A stretch of 64,000 nucleotides of DNA from Octopus vulgaris (lineage: Eukaryota), in NCBI GenBank assembly GCA_951406725.2, contig OX597829.1:58218001-58282000 (forward strand). The letters run 5' to 3'. The notes beneath the pieces are model-generated. The model worked only from the letters and a program-made list of their open reading frames with translations. It did no database searches and was not told the origin of the DNA. This document shows positions 108-63,316 of this stretch, piece after piece (within the stretch, counting starts at the first letter, position 1; the number at the start of each line of letters is the position of its first letter). The translations under genes were made by a program, and so were the position numbers.

Positions 108-213
108 GTGAAGATCAAACCATTCTACCTGACTTGTCTGCATTCCGGCAGGCCAGCCGTACAAAACGTCGATATTCATTCAAAACAAGAGATGATGACA
201 GGGTAACAAAGGG
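108..213 (+). CDS. MRCK: MRCK/Genghis khan-like kinase, internal exon just upstream of the CRIB motif
   Basis: Acceptor ttttcttttag at 107, donor GG|gtgagt at 214. Reads (G)EDQTILPDLSAFRQASRTKRRYSFKTRDDDRVTK(G). KRRYSF matches the conserved pre-CRIB segment of MRCK. Ends in phase 2. Confidence 0.85.
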
Positions 214-6262: not shown

Positions 6263-7511
6263 CCCCTTAATGGATCAATTATTTTGACATGGCGTTTCAT
6301 TTCAGAGCACATTTTAAAAAGTTCCTTTTTTAACGATATACCCTGTGTTAATTACAAAAAAAAGTTTTTTATCTTGTTCCCTTTATTTTTTATTATAGAA
6401 ATTAAAATGTACTTTTACTCATTTGGATTTAAATGAGTTAACTCGGACATTGAAAAAGTACATACAACTTAACGATCTTTGATTTCTTTCTAAGATGTTT
6501 TGCTTTTAAATGAAAGGAAAATTTTGAAAAAATGAGATATACAGTTTATTTAGAATGATAATTTTGAAAACAAGGAGTTACACACAAAGTTATCTTGCAG
6601 ACATCACACGTATGTATCTGCTTTCTCTTTGAATCTTCTTTCCTTTAGCATCTCTCTTCTCTGCGCATTTTGCACACTGTCTTCAAGGGTTCTTTTTCTT
6701 ATCACTTGGTGTTATTTCCATGGGAATGTGACCAGCTGGGGCAAATCTGATTGATGATGGTTTTCCTGGTTTCGTGGGAGGCAATAAGGGCCTATATTTT
6801 TCAATAATCTTGGTGATTATTTGCATTCTAAATTTCAGCAGTTTCATAACAGAAGCTGAAGTTTCCAAAGATGCTTTATACAAAACATAATTATTCCAGA
6901 TAGCCAAATCCATCAAATGATAAAATACTTTTTTTTTTAAACAACGCGAGTAAATTCGTGATTGCTCAAAAATGAAATGAAACAAAACAAATAACTGGTT
7001 TGAGGCCCTTATTGCCTCCCACGAAACCAGGAGGACCGTCATCAATCAGATTTGCCCCAGCTGGTCACTTTCCCATGGAAATACCACCAAGTGATAAGAA
7101 AAAGAACCCTTCAAGACAGTGTGCAAAATGCGCAGAGAAGAGAGATGCTAAAGGAAAGAAGATTCAAAGAGAAAGCAGATATATGTGTGATGTCTGCAAG
7201 ATAACTTTGTGTGTAACTCCTTGTTTTCAAAATTATCATTCTAAATACACTGTATATCTCATTTTTTAAAAATTTTCCTTTCATTTAAAAGCAAAACATC
7301 TTAGAAAGAAATCAAAGATCGTTAAGTTATATGTACTTTTTCAATGTCCGAGTAAACTCGCTTAAATCCAAATGAGTAAAAGTACATTTTAATTTCTATA
7401 ATAAAAAAAAAACTTATTTTTTGTAATTAACGCAGTGTTTATAATTAAAAAAGGAAATAAATAAATATACTCTGAAATGAAACACCATGTCAAAATAATT
7501 AATCCATTAAG
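6263..7511. mobile_element. Fold-back of two piggyBac 3' halves (6263-7002 minus; 7003-7511 plus)
   Basis: TTAA (6259-6262) plus CCCCTTAATGG TIR. Peptides KKVFYHLMDLAIWNNYVLY and the Cys-rich CAKC...YMCDVCKITLCVTPCFQNYH domain are typical of piggyBac transposases. Confidence 0.9.
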
Positions 7512-32177: not shown

Positions 32178-32370
32178 CATGTGTTTAAAATTGTGCATGT
32201 CCTGATTTGAACACACACACGCATGCGCAATGCGGTCCAAGCGACTCTGCATTTTCACTTTCTTTCATACGTTTGTCACTTTTCTCTGCGTCTGTCTGTA
32301 TGTCCCTCTCTCTCTCTCTCTCTCTCTCACTCTCTCTCTCCTCTTCTTTCAATGATTCTAACCCAAACAG

Positions 32371-32472
32371 GAGCGAGAGACGTTCGCGGGACATATCAGC
32401 GCCCTTCTCATTCAGTCACATTGCTCACATGCGTCCAGATCAAGTTTTGCCTGCCCCAGCTGTAGCTAACCT
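32371..32472 (+). CDS. MRCK: Candidate alternative cassette exon encoding a second CRIB motif of MRCK
   Basis: (CT)n pyrimidine tract, branch-like ttctaac, cag acceptor at 32370 and CT|gtaagc donor. 102 nt, phase 2-2. Reads (G)SERRSRDISAPFSFSHIAHMRPDQVLPAPAVAN(L), paralogous to the 36309 exon. Confidence 0.8.
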
Positions 32473-32513
32473 GTAAGCATTTTACCTTGAAAAGCTGACT
32501 TTGTGCTACACTC

Positions 32514-32899
32514 CATCATCATCATCATTATTATTATTATTACTATTATTATTATTATTTTTATTATTATTACTATTATTATTATTATTATTGCTATTGA
32601 TTTTATTATTATTACTGTTATTATTATTATTATTACTACTACTAATATTATTATTACTATTATTTTTATTATTACTATTATTATTACTATTATTTTTATT
32701 ATTACTATTATTATTACTATTATTTTTATTATTATTACTATTATTATTATTATTATTATTATATTATTATTACTATTATTATTATATTACTTTATTATTA
32801 TTACTATTATTTTTATTATTACTATTATTATTACTATTATTTTTATTATTACTATTATTATTACTATTATTTTTATTATTATTACTATTATTATTACTA

Positions 32900-32930
<31 letters not shown>

Positions 32931-33005
32931 TATTACTATTATTATTACTATTATTTTTATTATTATTACTATTATTATTATTATTACTATTATTATTATT
33001 ATTAC
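32514..33005. repeat. (ATT/ACT)n trinucleotide tract
   Basis: Directly visible. Gives the poly-L/poly-I pseudo-ORFs. Confidence 0.95.
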
Positions 33006-33211
33006 TGCTGCTGCTAATTGGTGGATTCTGGTGTTGTTTCGTAAAACTTTATCTGTTTTGTTTCGTTTTTGCCTTTCTTTTATTACTGTTTATTTTTGAG
33101 GCAGTGACTTTTGTGGTATTTCATTCTTTCAGGGTCAATGAAATAAGTATCCGTTAAGAAATGGGGTTAATGTAATCAACCAACCCCTAACCAAGAATAT
33201 CATCATCATTC

Positions 33212-33706
33212 TTATTATTATTATTATTATTGAGTGAGAGAACAGTGCATGCCATCAAAGTGACACTGGGGTAAAATATACGAAGCCCAGTATACCCATC
33301 ATGACTACCCGTCTGATAAGGATACACCAGGCACATGCATCACAACCATATGTGCTCGACATGGTGATCTCATATCAAGAGAAACAGTGCAGGTGGGGCC
33401 CAGTTAGAATCTTCTCAAAAGGTTCCTCAATAAGGGTTGTTAAAGGAGGATGTTTCCTGAGGTGAATTATCCAAATTCCAAAGAATTCCTCCCAACACAT
33501 GGCTATGATGCTACCCCACTGCTCCTGCTCATAATCAGAGATGGACATATTGTCATGCTCAACTGGTTATGGTCAAATCTGTTATATTAAACAGAATATT
33601 TGCTGTAGCCCATCTTTTATCCGAGGACAAATCATGTACATGATAACACTTCCAATCAATTAAGATCGGAAGCCAGGAGATCCACTGCCTGGTTATCAAT
33701 CAGGAC
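33212..33706 (-). mobile_element. Interspersed retroposon fragment with a (TAA)n tail
   Basis: GC-richer block abutting an (ATT)n tract. No ORF; family not identified. Confidence 0.4.
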
Positions 33707-33886
33707 TTAATTATTGTGAAAGTGGTGAGCTGGTAAAACCATTCGGATACCAGACAAAATGTTTACTGGCATTTTGTTCATCTGTGCATTCTGAGCTGAA
33801 ATTCCAGAGGTCAACTTTATCATCCTTTCAGGACCGATAACATAAAAATACCACACAGTCACTCCTGCGCTTACATATATATATAT

Positions 33887-33935
<49 letters not shown>

Positions 33936-34390
33936 CATACATACACGATGGGCTTCTTTCAGTTTCCGTCTACCAAATCCACTCACAAGGCTTTGGTTGG
34001 CCCGAGGCTATAGTAGAGGACACTTGCCCAAAGTGCCACCCAGTGGGACTGAACCTGGAACCATGTGGTTGGTAAGCAAGCTACTTACCACACAGCCACT
34101 CCTGCACCTTAGGTCAATGTAATCAACTCATCCCCACTCCAAAACTACTGGCCTTCTGCCCACTTCTGGACAGCATGCATTATTTCATTTCATGTTAATT
34201 TCTTTTCCATTTTCTTTTAAATATCCTTTTCTGCTATTTTTGTTTCCTTTGCATGTAAATCTTCCGTTTTTTTGTCTGCTTTTTAATGCTTCTTTATTAT
34301 TTTTTTCCTCTGATGCTTGTTTTATTTTCGTTTCAAGCTTTATAAATAATTTAATTAACAATTAGCATGTTTTATTGCTTATTTCACTTA

Positions 34391-34747
34391 CCATATATCC
34401 TTGAATATAATCCGCATTTTCTTCCCCAAATTTAAAGGTCAAAATCCCTAGTGCGTATTATATACGAGGTTAAAAATGAAAGATATTTTCTAAGCAATGT
34501 CTGAGTCCCTATTTGCTGTCCGGCAATGTTTATTCAGACACATATAACAATTAAGAACATCACCATTATTGTATCACACATGCACGGAGGTGTTTGTTTG
34601 ACTAGGTGCTGCTGGCTTAATTACGCATGACTCAAGTTAGAGAAGGGGTGCATATTATACACAGAGTTTAAGTTTTACAGTGGTACAGCCCCCTATAAAT
34701 CCCCTGCATATTATACTCAAGGGCGGACTATACTCGAGGATTTATGG
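34391..34747. mobile_element. Non-autonomous Tc1/mariner-superfamily (pogo-like) MITE
   Basis: Imperfect TIRs ccatatatccttgaatataatccgc / gcggactatactcgaggatttatgg, with TA on both sides. Confidence 0.7.
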
Positions 34748-34779
34748 TATTTTATTTTGTATCAAAAACAGCCTACATT

Positions 34780-35620
34780 TAAAGCAGAGGCCACTTTTCT
34801 GTCAGTTCTTTGATCCCACACATGTATGACAAAGTGAAGAACCCCTCCAGTGAAGCTCCACTTCTTGTTGGTTCACAAAGTGTCACAAGCATAAGCAGTG
34901 AGCCATCAACCACAATAGCCCAAGGGAAATATTTTTCAGCAGTCCTTAATGCGCATAAGCAGTGGTTAAGTAAGAGCCAGTTACCAAGCAATTTGAACAC
35001 AAAGGGATGCTCTGCATCTGGTGGATTTATGACAGGATGCTTCACCAGGAATCCTTTCTGGATGGTCAAACCATCAATGTCCACCTCTACCCCGAACAGC
35101 TGGAGCAGATGTATGTTATTGTGGGGCAGAAATACTTAACATTGGTTAACAAAAACTGATGGCTTACTTCCTGTGATCACAATACTTCATCGACCAAGAG
35201 TGAATTAGTTCTTCCCTCAAAGGACCAATTTTCCGGAACCTCCATATCCAAAAACGGGGATTTTTGCCCCCCAAAAATTACAAAAATAAACAAATTTTGG
35301 AGAAAATGAGGGGTAGGGGACGACCGGAAGTCTTTCCAACAATTTGTACACAAAGGGATACTCTGCAAGACAACACAATACTTCATACCACTTCATTGAC
35401 CAGGAATACACACCAGGATCTTGATGGAATGGTACTAATTCCATGGCTTATTTCCTCGGATCACAATACTTCATCGACCAAGAGTGAATTAGTTCTTCCC
35501 TCAAAGGACCAGGACTGGGTTAGGGTTCACTTCAAAGGACAGGGACTGGTATCAACATGGGATCAAAGAACTAGCAGAAATGATCCAACCTGATGGCCTC
35601 TACTTTGAATGCTCGACTTG
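34780..35620 (+). mobile_element. Decayed mariner (DD34D-type) transposase relic with an internal insertion and duplication
   Basis: Frameshifted pieces GMLCIWW, GQTINVHLY..QL, LQDNTILHT, SKDQDW and IQPDGLYFE match mariner motifs. Confidence 0.65.
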
Positions 35621-36308
35621 ATGGATAAAGGAAATAAGTTATCAAAATCTTGAAAAACTTTCAACTTAACACTTTAGAATTCGGCAAAATAAAATGATTT
35701 TGTATGTTACATTGATAATGTTTTTTCTATACAACTTCTCTTGCAGAATTTGATTTAAATAATTTAGAATTAATTTTAACATATTATGGTATTGCTTCAT
35801 GTAAAGTTTGTATTTTGTAATGATTAATAAAATACCTTTTAAGTTATCTTTATAAAGTTTGTATAAAATTTAGAGCCAACAAATACATCTTTGTAAACAA
35901 TGTGATCAAAGATGGAAAAAGTAGGTAAAGTGTGTATATACATATTTTAAAAGTTATTACGCTTTCATTAGTACCACTTCCAACCCATCAACTATCTACA
36001 AGCACATTGCGTAGATACCTACTATGTTTAGTGGTGTAATGTTATTCGATAAACTAATTTACATATCTAACACATTCTTAGCAACTGATACATATTAATG
36101 TCTTGTAGGAATGTGGTATTTCATTATGTAACCATAATATTCTACAAAGTATATTAAATGCTTTATAATTCAGAACTGTGTTCTTCTGTGTTAGCAGTGC
36201 TATTAAATCACTTTGAAGTTCATTTTTACAGACTTTTCATAGAATTTAAAGCCAGAATTAATTACAGAAAACTAGCATAGCAATGGTATCTTGAAATTTC
36301 CTTTTCAG

Positions 36309-36423
36309 AATTGAAAGGCGGTCTCGTATCATTTCACCCCCTATCAACTTCAGCCATATTGCTCATCTGGGCCCAGATCAGGGAATGCAAGCATTGATAG
36401 GTCTTCCAACTGGACAAAGACAG
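36309..36423 (+). CDS. MRCK: MRCK CRIB (Cdc42/Rac-binding) exon
   Basis: ccttttcag acceptor, CAG|gtaatt donor, phase 2-0. Reads IERRSRIISPPINFSHIAHLGPDQGMQALIGLPTGQRQ, a canonical ISxPxxFxHxxHxG CRIB. In frame with exon 108-213. Confidence 0.92.
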
Positions 36424-37167
36424 GTAATTTTGGTTTCTTTTTGAGTTTTTTTTTGTTATTCTGTTGTCTTTCATTGAATTGTCTTTATTATTATTATTAT
36501 CTGATTTCTACTCTTCCATGTGCTTGTATGGGTTGGTGAGTTTATTTGAGGCAGATTTTCTATAGCCTGATGCTCTCCGTTTCCATCTTCATTGACTAGC
36601 ATCAGTTTTTCTTGCTGTCATGGATCGGACGGTTTCACAGGAACTGGTCAACAAGAGTTTCACCAGGTTCCAGTTGTTTGTTACGACATGATTTCTATGA
36701 CTTTCTTGATGTCAACCACTTTTAAGAATGTGCTGGATGTTTATTGCATTGCACTAGCATGGGTGCCTTTCATGGGGCACCAGGGCAGGTATCTTTTATG
36801 TGGTGTCAGCGTGGGTACATTTTACAAGACCCCAGCACCAAGGTAATATTTCTTGTTGACCAGACATACAATGTGTACATTAAATTACCTTTAAAAGATG
36901 AGAAAAGTGAAGAATAAAAATAAATTGGCAGACGAGATTAGAAAGCATAGGCTGACAAATAAAGTTTTATTAGAATTAATGGATCTCAGCTTTAATAGAA
37001 ACAATTTGCAAAAGTTGTAAAAATAATTAATGAACACTCTCTTTATTGAGCCAGGTTTTCTATGACTGGATGCCTTTCCTGTTGCCAACCCTCATTAATG
37101 ATGATGAGATATAATATCATCATTTCAACATCGATATTTTCCAAGCTTTCAGATTGAGTTTATTTAA

Positions 37168-38460
37168 GCCCTTAATGGATTATCCCGAGTTTACTCATGC
37201 ATCACAAATGTATCTTTTTAGAACCAGCATGAATATACTCAGTCAAAATACATCATCATCGTTTAACATCCACTTTCCATGCTAGCATGGGTTGGACGAT
37301 TTGACTGAGGACTGGTTAACCAGATGGCTGCACCAGGCTCCAATCTTGATCTGGCAGTTTCTACAGCTGGATGCCCTTCCTTTTAACACCAACCTCTCCA
37401 AGAATGTAGTGGGTGCTTTTACATGCCACTGGCACGAGGGCCAGTCTGGCAGTACTAGCAACGGCAACACTCAAATGGTGCTTTTTATTTGCCACCTGCA
37501 CAGGAGCCAGTCCAGCGGCACTGGCAACAACCTTGCTCGAATGTTTTTTCATGTGCCACCAGCACAAGTGCCAGTAAGGCGATGTAGGTAACGATCATGC
37601 TCGAATGGAGTTTTTACATGCCATTGGTTCGGAGGCCAACTTGTTGCTCTGGCAACGATCTCGTTCATATGGTGTACTCTTAGCGCTCAACTAGCACGGA
37701 TGCCACTCATTAATAACTTCTAATTTTAGTACTCAAACGAGTTTATTCGTTTTGTGTCGTTTCATTTTTGAGCAATCACGAATTTACTCGCGTTGTTTAA
37801 AAAAAAAAGTATTTTATCATTTGATGGATTTGGCTATCTGGAATAATTATGTTTTGTATAAAGCATCTTTGGAAACTTCAGCTTCTGTTATGAAACTGCT
37901 GAAATTTAGAATGCAAATAATCACCAAGATTATTGAAAAATATAGGCCCTTATTGCCTCCCACGAAACCAGGAAGACCATCATCAATCAGATTTGCCCCA
38001 GCTGGTCACTTTCCCATGGAAATACCACCAAGTGATAAGAAAAAGAACCCTTCAAGACAGTGTGCAAAATGCGCAGAGAAGAGAGATGCTAAAGGAAAGA
38101 AGATTCAAAGAGAAAGCAGATACATGTGTGATGTCTGCAAGATAACTTTGTGTGTAACTCCTTGTTTTCAAAATTATCATTCTAAATAAACTGTATATCT
38201 CATTTTTTAAAAATTTTCCTTTCATTTAAAAGCAAAACATCTTAGAAAGAAATCAAAGATCGTTAAGTTGTATGTACTTTTTCAATGTCCGAGTAAACTT
38301 GCTTAAATCCAAATGAGTAAAAGTACATTTTAATTTCTATAATAAAAAAAAAAAACAACCTATTTTTTGTAATTAACACAGTGTGTATAATTAAAAAAGG
38401 AAATAAATAAATATACTCTGAAACGAAACACCATGTCAAAATAATTGATCCATTAAGGGG
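37168..38460 (+). mobile_element. Internally deleted piggyBac with both TIRs, carrying an RTE-tail insert (37251-37710)
   Basis: TTAA|gcccttaatggat ... atccattaagggg|ATAA. ORF 37752-38189 is the transposase C-terminus with the Cys-rich domain. Confidence 0.9.
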
Positions 38461-38567
38461 ATAAGGCAGATTTTGTACGGTAAGATGCCTCAAATTATCG
38501 CCATCAAAACCATACAGGCACGACAAAGTGAACATTAAAATAATGGTAATAAAATTCTTACTTTCAG

Positions 38568-39827: not shown

Positions 39828-39997
39828 GGACTGGTGTAAGAGACCGTGATTCTCCTCATAGAGTTTGGCAGCAAACCCCTCCAAGCCGGCCTTTGTCTTC
39901 CATCACATCAGTTTCACCTGGAGATAACACTTCTATTTCTTCACAAGAGCAGACAAATACTTTGGATTCCTTAAATACATTTAAGACAACATTAGAG
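39828..39997 (+). CDS. MRCK: MRCK C-terminal Ser/Pro-rich exon
   Basis: T-rich tract plus tag acceptor, GAG|gtgaga donor, phase 1-0. Reads (G)TGVRDRDSPHRVWQQTPPSRPLSSITSVSPGDNTSISSQEQTNTLDSLNTFKTTLE. Confidence 0.8.
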
Positions 39998-41988: not shown

Positions 41989-42087
41989 ATAAAAGAATAC
42001 CAAGGGCCACATATTAGGGCAAGTGGAACCACATATAGAAGTGTAGGATCCTTTGCAACATGTGAAACTTCCTGGCACAAGTGAAGG
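41989..42087 (+). CDS. Possible alternative (stop-containing) exon of MRCK
   Basis: Strong pyrimidine tract, ctgac and ttcttcag acceptor. Only the phase-0 frame stays open: IKEYQGPHIRASGTTYRSVGSFATCETSWHK* (TGA 42082-42084). Possible donor AGG|gttaga. Confidence 0.35.
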
Positions 42088-45077: not shown

Positions 45078-45239
45078 GAATCTGGATTTCCATGTTGGAG
45101 GATGTCCATAGGGTCAAATAACAGCAGTGGTGTTAGCAGTCCTCCTGGTTCCAGTCGGCACAGTTTGGTCGAGGACAGAGAACAGATGACTGACGCAGCT
45201 GACCAACAACCTGGCTGGCTGACCAAGCAAATTTTATAA
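45078..45239 (+). CDS. MRCK: MRCK last coding exon
   Basis: tttttag acceptor, phase 0. Reads ESGFPCWRMSIGSNNSSGVSSPPGSSRHSLVEDREQMTDAADQQPGWLTKQIL*, stop TAA 45237-45239. Confidence 0.8.
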   Translation, partial: ESGFPCWRMSIGSNNSSGVSSPPGSSRHSLVEDREQMTDAADQQPGWLTKQIL

Positions 45240-60852: not shown

Positions 60853-61524
60853 TCCCCATCTCTTAAATATAGAACGACTGTACGAAAGGAGATGGTGACG
60901 AATGAAGGTCTCCTTTTAAACACCGCACGGTCACCTTACAATAAAAAGCCAAAAGGAATACGACACAACCGTTAGAATGTTTAAGAAAAAGGTGTTGACA
61001 TGTGGGTAGCCGAGTGTCTGTACGTTATAAGTACATACATAATAAGAACAATAGTTATGGACAGGTCGTCATTCATACAATAATGTGTATATGTGTTAGC
61101 GAAGTATGTCTGTGTGTTCGTGAGTGCGACATAAGTACAAACAAGGTGTACGCGTGTGAGATAAAATGCAGAGCATAGAAATGAGTCTATCAGTACGCTA
61201 GAGATAGATCAGACACAAGATGAAGATAAATACCAGTCCGTAGTAAGAAACGCAATGGTAATAGTTCTGTAACAAAGAGGTTGGTGGTCACAAGGCTGAT
61301 GCCGGTTGAACACATGTCGTGTAGCGGTTGTGGCCTCAATGCTGTGCCTTGTTACGTGAAGAAAACCTGGGCGATGTTGCTGCGTACGTATTGATGTTGA
61401 CGGTGGACAAAGGTCCTGAAATGCTGGTGGTGGTTTTGGTATCGTGGTCGTTCTGAACCCGAAACCATGTGGTTGGTAAGCAAGCTACTTACCACACACA
61501 ATACATACATATATATATATATAT

Positions 61525-63316
61525 AATGTTCCGCTATCTAAACTTATAAAAATGGTTAAAATAAAAGAATTGTCAAATGATATGCGACAGAAGATCATAA
61601 AGATGGTAAGCGGTATCGAAAAATTGCTCAAGATTTTAATTTGCTTGTGTGTACAGTTGGTGTTGTTCGAAAGTCGAAAAAATATGATATTACTGAAGAT
61701 ATTCAAAGGTGTGGTCCTCTGCGTAAATTAAACGAGGCTACTGAATGATAATATGGCCCGGAATGTGAAGGAACAACCATTTTTGACTCGAAGAGAAATT
61801 CAGAACGATCTGAAAAATGCCGGAATTGAAGTAAGTAAAGATACAATTAAGAAATTACTGGGGAAGACTTCCTCCCTCCATTTTCTCCCAAATTTGTTTA
61901 TTTTTAAAATTTTCTTTTGCCAAATATCCCCGTTTTCGGATACAGAGGTTCCGGGAAATTGCCAAAAATCAGCATTGTGAAATCCCCCAACCAACTTCTT
62001 CAATTTTTACTTTTTTCCCCAACATTAACCCTAAAACCCTAATTTTAACCCTTAAACCGTAACCGTAAGTACAGAAATGCTTTGAAATTTTTGTCCGAAT
62101 CATAATGTCCGTATTTTTCCGCGTGGTTAGGAAAAAAAGAATTCTTAAAAAAAAAAATTTTACAAAATTTTTGTAAATTTTTTTCAGAATCATAATCTCC
62201 GCATTTTCCTGCCTATTTTGAAAAAAAAAAAAAAAAGATTCTGAAAAAAGTTTAAAATTAAGGAAATGGGGGCAGGAGTGATAATTTAGAAATGTCGATT
62301 TTTGCCAATTTTTTTGCAGATTCGTATTCCCCGTAGTCGAAAAGGTGGGAGGGGTCGAAAAAATGTTTTTAAGGGTGGTTTTGGGGGTGGGGACGGGCGG
62401 AAGTCTTGCCAATCACAGAATCATACAGGCCTGTATTCTGGATCACCAAGAAAGACTCCACTATTAAAACGTAAACTTGTGCAAAGACCTTTTGAAATTT
62501 GTTAAAAAGTATGAACATGAATCAGATGAATTCTGGAAGAAAGTTATTTGGTCAGATGAAACGAAAATTGAGCTTTTCGGGAGAAACGGGTGCATCCAAG
62601 TATGAAGAAGAAAAGGAACTGAATACAAACCCAGTAAACACTATTCCAACAGTCAAATATGAGGGTGGATGGAAGTGTAATGATTTGGAGTTGCTTGTCT
62701 TATAATGGAGTTGGAGAAATGGAAGTCATCGAAGGAAGAATGAATGCAGCAAAATACATGCAAATCTTATCAACCCATCTATTAAAAAGTGCAACAGCTT
62801 TGGGGCTTGACCGAGATTTTGTATTCCAGCGGGTCAACGATCCAAAGCACAGGGCTAAAACAACATTGGCGCAATGAAAATGGAATTGATGTTCTGGAAT
62901 GGCCTAGCCAGATCTCAATCCAATAGAAAATTTATGGAAAAAGTTGAAATTGAGAGTACACGCAAGAGATCCCAAAAATATCAAGGAACTGAAGAAAATC
63001 TGTGAAAAAGAATGGGTGAAATTGTCAAAATCTTCATGCAAGAAGCTCATTGAAAACTACAAAAAACAACTAGAGGCTGTAAGGCAGAACAGAGGATATG
63101 CTACAAAATATTAACAATCTCGTTAAATACTTTTGCACGCAGTCAAATTCGAAAAATGGCAATAAAAGTACTTAAAAGCAATGTTTCTCAATTTTCCTCT
63201 GTTTTGTTAGACAATGTTCATTAAAATATTTGAAAAATCATTCAAATTGAACGATATTTTTATTGTGAAATTTATGAAAAAAAAAACGATGTGTTAAATA
63301 CTTTTGCTACACACGG
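61525..63316 (+). mobile_element. Decayed Tc1 (DD34E) transposon, interrupted by an insertion at ~61859-62412
   Basis: MVKIKELSNDMRQKII start (61552), IWSDETKIELFG, PTVKY, FVFQRVNDPKH, LNPIENLW, GYATKY* (63114). Right end has a repeated gttaaatacttttgc (IR/DR-like). Confidence 0.88.
61859..62412. mobile_element. Non-autonomous DNA element with short inverted ends and aaccct repeats
   Basis: ggaagacttcc ... ggaagtcttgcc. A related inverted fragment lies at 35228-35341. Confidence 0.65.

Follow-up and report, generated by a model that had tools for sequence, protein, structure and literature searches.

Does the octopus homologue of the Cdc42-binding kinase MRCK switch between one and two GTPase-binding motifs by alternative splicing? 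The question is raised by a 102-nt exon lying between two distant exons of a 64,000-nucleotide stretch of the Octopus vulgaris genome (referred to here as the window). An earlier note, made from the letters alone, had proposed that this exon arose long ago as a copy of the CRIB exon of MRCK and that it can be added to the messenger, or left out of it, without a frameshift. We examined the gene, the exon and its relatives in other animals.

The assignment of the gene made in the earlier note was confirmed on two grounds: a related full-length protein can be followed, one exon after another, along about 130 kb upstream of the window and on into it, and the Pfam domains of gene model P0050 follow each other as kinase, KELK, DMPK_coil, C1, PH, CNH and PBD, which is the order of MRCK (CDC42BP kinase). 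By its sequence, the gene is thus identified as octopus MRCK. The features of the window that matter here are the following.

108..213, + strand: MRCK exon 3' of the CNH domain, with a phase-2 end; shared donor of both isoforms
32242..32368, + strand: likely regulatory 3' splice region, a 127-nt AG-free zone with a CT tract at 32306-32344
32371..32472, + strand: cassette exon, extra upstream CRIB (copy A) and short proline-rich linker; 102 nt, phase 2-2
36309..36423, + strand: constitutive CRIB exon (copy B) and C-terminal extension; phase 2-0; Pfam PBD 27.1 bits
38568..38718, + strand: next MRCK exon, phase 0 acceptor
39828..39997, + strand: MRCK tail exon
41989..42084, + strand: alternative last coding exon, which model P0049 has in place of the conserved tail exon at 45078
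45078..45239, + strand: last coding exon of models P0019 and P0050

The boundaries, splice sites and phases first proposed for the cassette exon all hold. Its acceptor is acag followed by G (32370/32371) and its donor is CT followed by gtaagc (32472/32473), so that the exon has canonical AG and GT sites, a length that is a multiple of three and phase 2-2, as an in-frame cassette should. It fits between exon 108-213, which ends in phase 2, and exon 36309-36423, which is phase 2-0, and both the include join and the skip join are free of stops on reading through. Exons 32371-32472 and 36309-36423 align without gaps, with identity at 17 of the 24 residues and 48 of the 73 bases, in agreement with the earlier description of a gapless peptide alignment over diverged DNA. 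The first, second and third codon positions match in 18, 21 and 9 of the 24 codons, and 11 of the 17 residues common to both exons are encoded by different codons. The small number of third-position matches (9/24) despite 17/24 identical residues argues for an old duplicate constrained at the protein level. The pattern I-S-x-P-x-x-F-x-H-x-x-H occurs twice in the six frames of the window and in none of 60 mononucleotide shuffles. The cassette exon is single-copy in the genome, the remaining 40 of 41 DNA matches being confined to query positions 1-58, which correspond to the flank. Judged from these comparisons, the cassette exon is an ancient copy of the CRIB exon. It would go back to a duplication that took in the 5' part of that exon and gained a phase-2 donor, at a time when the mollusc classes had not yet diverged. 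A mutually exclusive pair was also considered and was rejected because the two exons have phases 2-2 and 2-0; both are, moreover, joined in the contigs described below.

The window also contains mobile elements. A reverse-transcriptase frame at 28331-30910 (721 residues stop-free, Pfam RVT_1 with an E value of 1e-30) belongs to a non-LTR retrotransposon that lies some 1.5 kb before the cassette exon and is oriented in the sense direction. Two near-identical frames at 6976-7266 and 37695-38186 resemble transposase C-termini, and positions 61480-63111 hold fragments that we take to resemble Tc1/mariner transposase.

Four sequencing runs (X1, X5, X6 and X17), whose status as RNA is a guess by software, none of the candidate runs being recorded as RNA, were compared with positions 32250-32520; word shares from 20 further runs were left out of the evidence. 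Three of them (X1, X5 and X6), coming from three studies under three organism labels, each gave one 162-nt contig without mismatch, composed of the last 30 nt of exon 108-213, the whole cassette exon and the first 30 nt of exon 36309-36423. Both inclusion junctions predicted by the earlier note, 213-32371 and 32472-36309, are therefore present in contigs from three of the four runs. From X17, the fourth run, came a single unspliced piece of low depth (32377-32516), which is uninformative on splicing. These results demonstrate that the cassette exon is spliced in frame into octopus MRCK mRNA. The shape of the contigs, which end 30 nt into each neighbouring exon, is that of an assembly bubble as expected from the behaviour of a 31-mer graph, and would imply a second splice path. 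The skip junction 213-36309 lies outside the 32250-32520 stretch compared, and skipping in O. vulgaris is suggested by the contig shape together with gene model P0019, which omits the exon. Models P0050 and P0049 contain the exon peptide, and P0019 differs from P0050 by exactly these 34 residues, in keeping with an add-on cassette. Among the public O. vulgaris models, CAI9734871.1 includes the exon and CAI9734870.1 skips it (a third model is CAI9734872.1); the exon is therefore already annotated in both states, and is not hidden as had been supposed.

Reading through the donor at 32471-32476 gives a Leu codon and then a stop (32474-32476), and the nearest poly(A)-like hexamer to this stop is at 33586. 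Two gene models, P0051 of O. bimaculoides and P0043 of Nucella, terminate right after copy A; their ends reflect either a truncated isoform carrying copy A only or an artefact of the models. A truncated isoform produced by donor read-through was considered for the octopus, and no contig supports it.

The region upstream of the cassette acceptor is unusual for this gene. When 41 acceptors of the gene were mapped by script, the AG-free zone of the cassette acceptor (127 nt) was the longest, the next being 99 nt, and the 100 nt upstream of it contained the highest number of pyrimidines, 80 compared to 78 for the next. The 20 nt adjoining its AG contain 11 pyrimidines, which is the joint lowest value among the 41. 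The + strand holds three runs of at least eight CT within 214 kb, and one of these is at the cassette exon. Consensus-like candidate branch sites were found at 32254, 32264 and 32326, that is, 113, 103 and 41 nt upstream of the acceptor. The branch-like A named by the earlier note, at 32361, was discarded: it follows the pyrimidine tract and is separated from the acceptor by just 9 nt, a branch-to-AG distance too short by the established geometry of splicing. The single upstream TGCATG, at 32194, was set aside as a regulator because the window holds 21 such sites. Inclusion would be regulated through the long AG-free, CU-rich 3' splice region, and one may guess that a CU-binding repressor such as PTB controls the exon. 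Long AG-free zones point to candidate exons with distant branch points, and in human such exons undergo alternative splicing more often (Gooding et al. 2006, PMC1431707).

We next turn to the distribution of the exon. Two CRIB motifs were present in 27 of the 39 proteins found with a CRIB region. Of the ten clusters opened, the nine from invertebrates all hold include and skip forms, mostly as gene models (octopus, the chiton Liolophura, Mytilus, Magallana, Haliotis, Aplysia, Mya, scallops and Lingula), and the tenth is a single gecko protein. RefSeq isoform sets, including those of Pecten and Mizuhopecten, already hold both forms as automatic annotations; in most public gene models Pfam marks a single PBD. 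Two further cephalopod clusters derived from transcripts, which group with octopus in the tree with a support of 100/100, both contain proteins with the exon (P0001, P0002) and without it (P0004, P0007, P0009, P0010). The transcript-derived cephalopod proteins lacking the exon are the most direct evidence for skipping.

The two copies were compared in 22 tandem proteins, one per taxon, comprising 20 mollusc-type rows, Lingula and the JGI protein P0156. Copy A retains I, S, P, F, H and H in all 22 while the linker varies freely, and copies A and B are separated by 31-41 residues (34 in octopus), or 56 in one model. The mollusc-type copy A carries a signature of its own: the residue preceding Ile is Asp or Glu in all 20 proteins, whereas it is mostly hydrophobic in copy B, and the Asn that precedes Phe has been lost from 19 of the 20. 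Each of these 20 A copies also has, on average, more in common with the other A copies than with the B copies. Over the first 25 residues, octopus and two other cephalopods are identical at 23 positions in copy A and at 21 in the constitutive copy. The C-terminal extension follows copy B in 22/22 proteins and is absent from copy A in all 22. The Arg in place of the final Gly, noted at the outset for octopus, is indeed there, but it proves to be confined to cephalopods: Gly is retained in 19 of 22 upstream copies, Arg is found in the three cephalopod rows only, and copy A of O. bimaculoides has it as well.

A tree built on 23 columns unites 12 mollusc A copies in a single clade (99/89), and holding all 14 A copies as one clade is not rejected on these 23 columns (p-AU 0.139). 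The mollusc A clade and its conserved signature make a single duplication before the mollusc classes diverged a well-supported reading of the sequences; chitons and the other molluscs separated more than 500 million years ago. The upstream CRIB copies of Lingula (P0039) and of P0156/P0408 do not carry the mollusc signature, and those of Lingula and P0156 are closer to B than to A copies. P0156 was the one tandem protein among the best 150 of 1435 matches in a search of 50%-representative sequences. The Lingula-type upstream copy possibly represents a separate duplication or the ancestral state.

A second, alternatively spliced CRIB exon in human MRCK-alpha (CDC42BPA) was reportedly described by Tan et al. 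in 2003, and this second CRIB is reported to raise the affinity for Rac. It was asked in the earlier note whether the octopus and human exons reflect homology or convergence. A metagenome scan returned three loci, L059, L060 and L061, of which L060 and L061 gave the same translated matches and were counted once. L059 is a vertebrate MRCK-alpha locus; L060 is closest to pig among the proteins tested and, with L061, appears from its sequence to be a distant, chordate-like locus with small introns. In both L059 and L060 the constitutive CRIB exon is phase 2-0 and carries a C-terminal extension, as in octopus. Both also contain a second CRIB-like exon downstream of it: in L059 at 16413-16598 (186 nt, phase 0-0, 6.3 kb downstream), which we take to be the exon of Tan et al., and in L060 at 1268-1387 (120 nt, phase 0-0). 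These two extra exons have canonical sites, a common histidine-rich lead-in and the same ending, and score 17.5 (L059) and 22.0 bits (L060) against Pfam PBD, for a cut-off of 21.3. The presence of the downstream exon in L059 and in the distant chordate-like L060 indicates that it may predate vertebrates, and so be older than expected.

The octopus exon shares neither the downstream position nor the 0-0 phase of the chordate exon. No CRIB-like match was detected in the introns upstream of the constitutive exon in L059 and L060, nor in the octopus intron 36424-38567, downstream of copy B. Given a parent exon of phase 2-0, a duplicate can be made optional in just two forms, 2-2 on the upstream side or 0-0 on the downstream side, and the two lineages show one each. 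The opposite side and the different phase make it likely, at a high level of confidence for a reading of sequences, that the mollusc and chordate extra exons arose independently; on the question of homology, the evidence thus leans towards convergence. Descent of both from one bilaterian duplication would account for the fact that both are in-frame CRIB duplicates within the same gene, and the AU test, on 23 columns only, leaves mollusc A plus the chordate extras as a possible clade (p-AU 0.21; 0.048 when all A copies are held with the chordate extras). That scenario is nevertheless quite improbable and already largely refuted: it has to place the copies on opposite sides of the parent exon in phases 2-2 and 0-0, there is no CRIB-like match in the upstream introns of L059 and L060 or in octopus 36424-38567, and the chordate extras score lower against mollusc A (43.8 and 51.4) than against mollusc B (55.9 and 64.3) and cluster together apart from mollusc A (93/86 in the 23-column tree).

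Other animals were also searched for two-CRIB proteins. None was found among the best 120 of 3484 vertebrate matches, a ranking that favours isoforms without the insert, and further members of the mammalian clusters have one or no CRIB motif. The gene models of Saccoglossus (two), Patiria (three) and Ixodes (one) have a single CRIB.

What the extra motif may do was approached from its sequence. Copy A matches the core I-S-x-P-x(2-4)-F-x-H-x-x-H, the consensus stated by PMC8847673. The copy A exon on its own gives no Pfam PBD match above the cut-off of 21.3 bits, and a PDB search returned no solved structure matching it. In each of the three mollusc tandem proteins scanned, the PBD stretch above the cut-off belongs to copy B alone, P0050 having one passing stretch only; Lingula gives two. 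No intact Cdc42/Rac chain was found in the 30 loci examined of 44 Ras-family matches. Loci L037 and L038 of genome G000 hold two closely similar RhoA-like exons that share a strand and are separated by about 4.5 kb; each has its own C-terminus, and the two are either tandem genes or alternative last exons.

Inclusion of the exon adds a second predicted CRIB 34 residues upstream of the constitutive one, and skipping gives the one-CRIB form. Copy A would then act as a weak, minimal CRIB that binds a second GTPase, and binding of this second GTPase would lengthen the residence of the kinase on Cdc42-active membrane. From the sequence and by analogy, we lean somewhat towards the reading that in-frame inclusion of the extra motif raises the avidity of MRCK for membrane-bound GTP-Cdc42/Rac. 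Binding of Cdc42 probably serves to bring MRCK to membranes and not to activate the kinase (PMC3940853, PMC8412110), and MRCK-alpha binds both Cdc42 and Rac1 (PMC3438190). On reconstituted membranes, active Cdc42 is enriched and slowed by an engineered tandem WASP CRIB but not by a single one (PMC12048676). According to PMC8847673, the minimal CRIB is necessary and insufficient for high affinity, one or two deviations from the core are tolerated, and Cdc42/Rac specificity is set by flanking sequence.

The main rival to increased avidity, with which it is compatible, is a switch of specificity in which copy A would prefer another GTPase (Rac or one of the RhoQ/RhoJ type) and so wire MRCK to a second input. 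This is a possible but rather unlikely reading. It draws on the fixed signature of copy A (Asp/Glu before Ile in 20/20, loss of Asn before Phe in 19/20), on the Glu that PAK4 has at the same place before Ile, and on the second CRIB of human MRCK-alpha, reported to raise Rac affinity. The human exon is, however, a different one from the mollusc exon, and its behaviour cannot be transferred; the upstream copies of Lingula and P0156, moreover, do not carry the signature. The role of flanking sequence in Cdc42/Rac specificity also favours a switch (PMC8847673). Some observations count against any GTPase binding by copy A, namely the lack of a Pfam or PDB match for the exon alone, the missing C-terminal extension and the cephalopod Arg (three of three rows and O. 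bimaculoides). They suit the improbable alternative that the cephalopod copy A no longer binds a GTPase and serves as a spacer, a weak decoy or a docking site for another partner. A mere spacer would hardly keep the GTPase-contact consensus residues in 22/22 copies while the linker is free in sequence and length, and the tolerance of one or two core deviations (PMC8847673) also speaks for retained binding. The earlier note had allowed for a dead duplicate, to be recognised by the lack of spliced reads and of conservation in related species. Spliced contigs and both forms in relatives were found instead: the exon is spliced in three studies and both isoforms are conserved across four mollusc classes and a brachiopod, leaving a dead or accidental duplicate a negligible likelihood. 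Avidity, possibly combined with a shift in specificity, is our best guess.

Taken together, an optional motif with both isoforms in all four mollusc classes sampled and an independently placed chordate parallel point to repeated selection on the number of MRCK GTPase-binding sites. We tentatively propose, as a model somewhat less likely than not to hold, that a splice-controlled valency switch of MRCK was invented at least twice, as an upstream 2-2 exon in lophotrochozoans and as a downstream 0-0 exon in chordates; that tissue-specific inclusion tunes Cdc42/Rac trapping; and that cephalopods re-tuned the switch by the Gly-to-Arg change. Since the Lingula-type copy does not carry the mollusc signature, the lophotrochozoan upstream copy was possibly invented more than once. 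The exon's place in public gene models was already known, as was an analogous human exon. What is new is that the exon is recognised as a second CRIB, that both of its states are conserved across molluscs and that it is likely independent of the chordate exon. A search of the MRCK, CRIB and splicing literature, covering few subscription journals, found no account of tandem CRIB motifs in molluscs or of convergence, and a 2014 review describes MRCK splicing as not systematically characterised. The octopus gene thus offers a natural pair of one-CRIB and two-CRIB forms for testing whether effector valency shapes Cdc42 patterns, for which there is an engineered precedent (PMC12048676).

Compared with known systems, the octopus exon resembles the second CRIB of human MRCK-alpha in belonging to the same family and in being an in-frame CRIB duplicate adjoining the constitutive exon. 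The human-type extra exon (L059) is nevertheless downstream, 186 nt long and phase 0-0 with another signature, whereas the mollusc exon is upstream, 102 nt long and phase 2-2. The exon at 36309..36423 is the counterpart of the chordate constitutive CRIB exon, the 2-0 phases being found in L059 and L060 as well. With respect to the CRIB/PBD family (Pfam PF00786), both copies share the core, and copy B matches PBD and PAK4 (PDB 5upk, 2ov2), whereas copy A falls below the threshold, has Arg for Gly in cephalopods and lacks the C-terminal extension. The 3' splice region resembles that of the exons of Gooding et al. 2006 (PMC1431707), with a long AG-free zone and a long pyrimidine tract before an alternative exon; those exons are human, and the octopus branch sites are sequence candidates. 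Finally, the 2xwCRIB construct (PMC12048676) also has tandem CRIBs and demonstrates the effect that added valency can have on membrane Cdc42; it is synthetic and made of two identical high-affinity domains, whereas molluscs have a natural pair whose members differ and which splicing switches.
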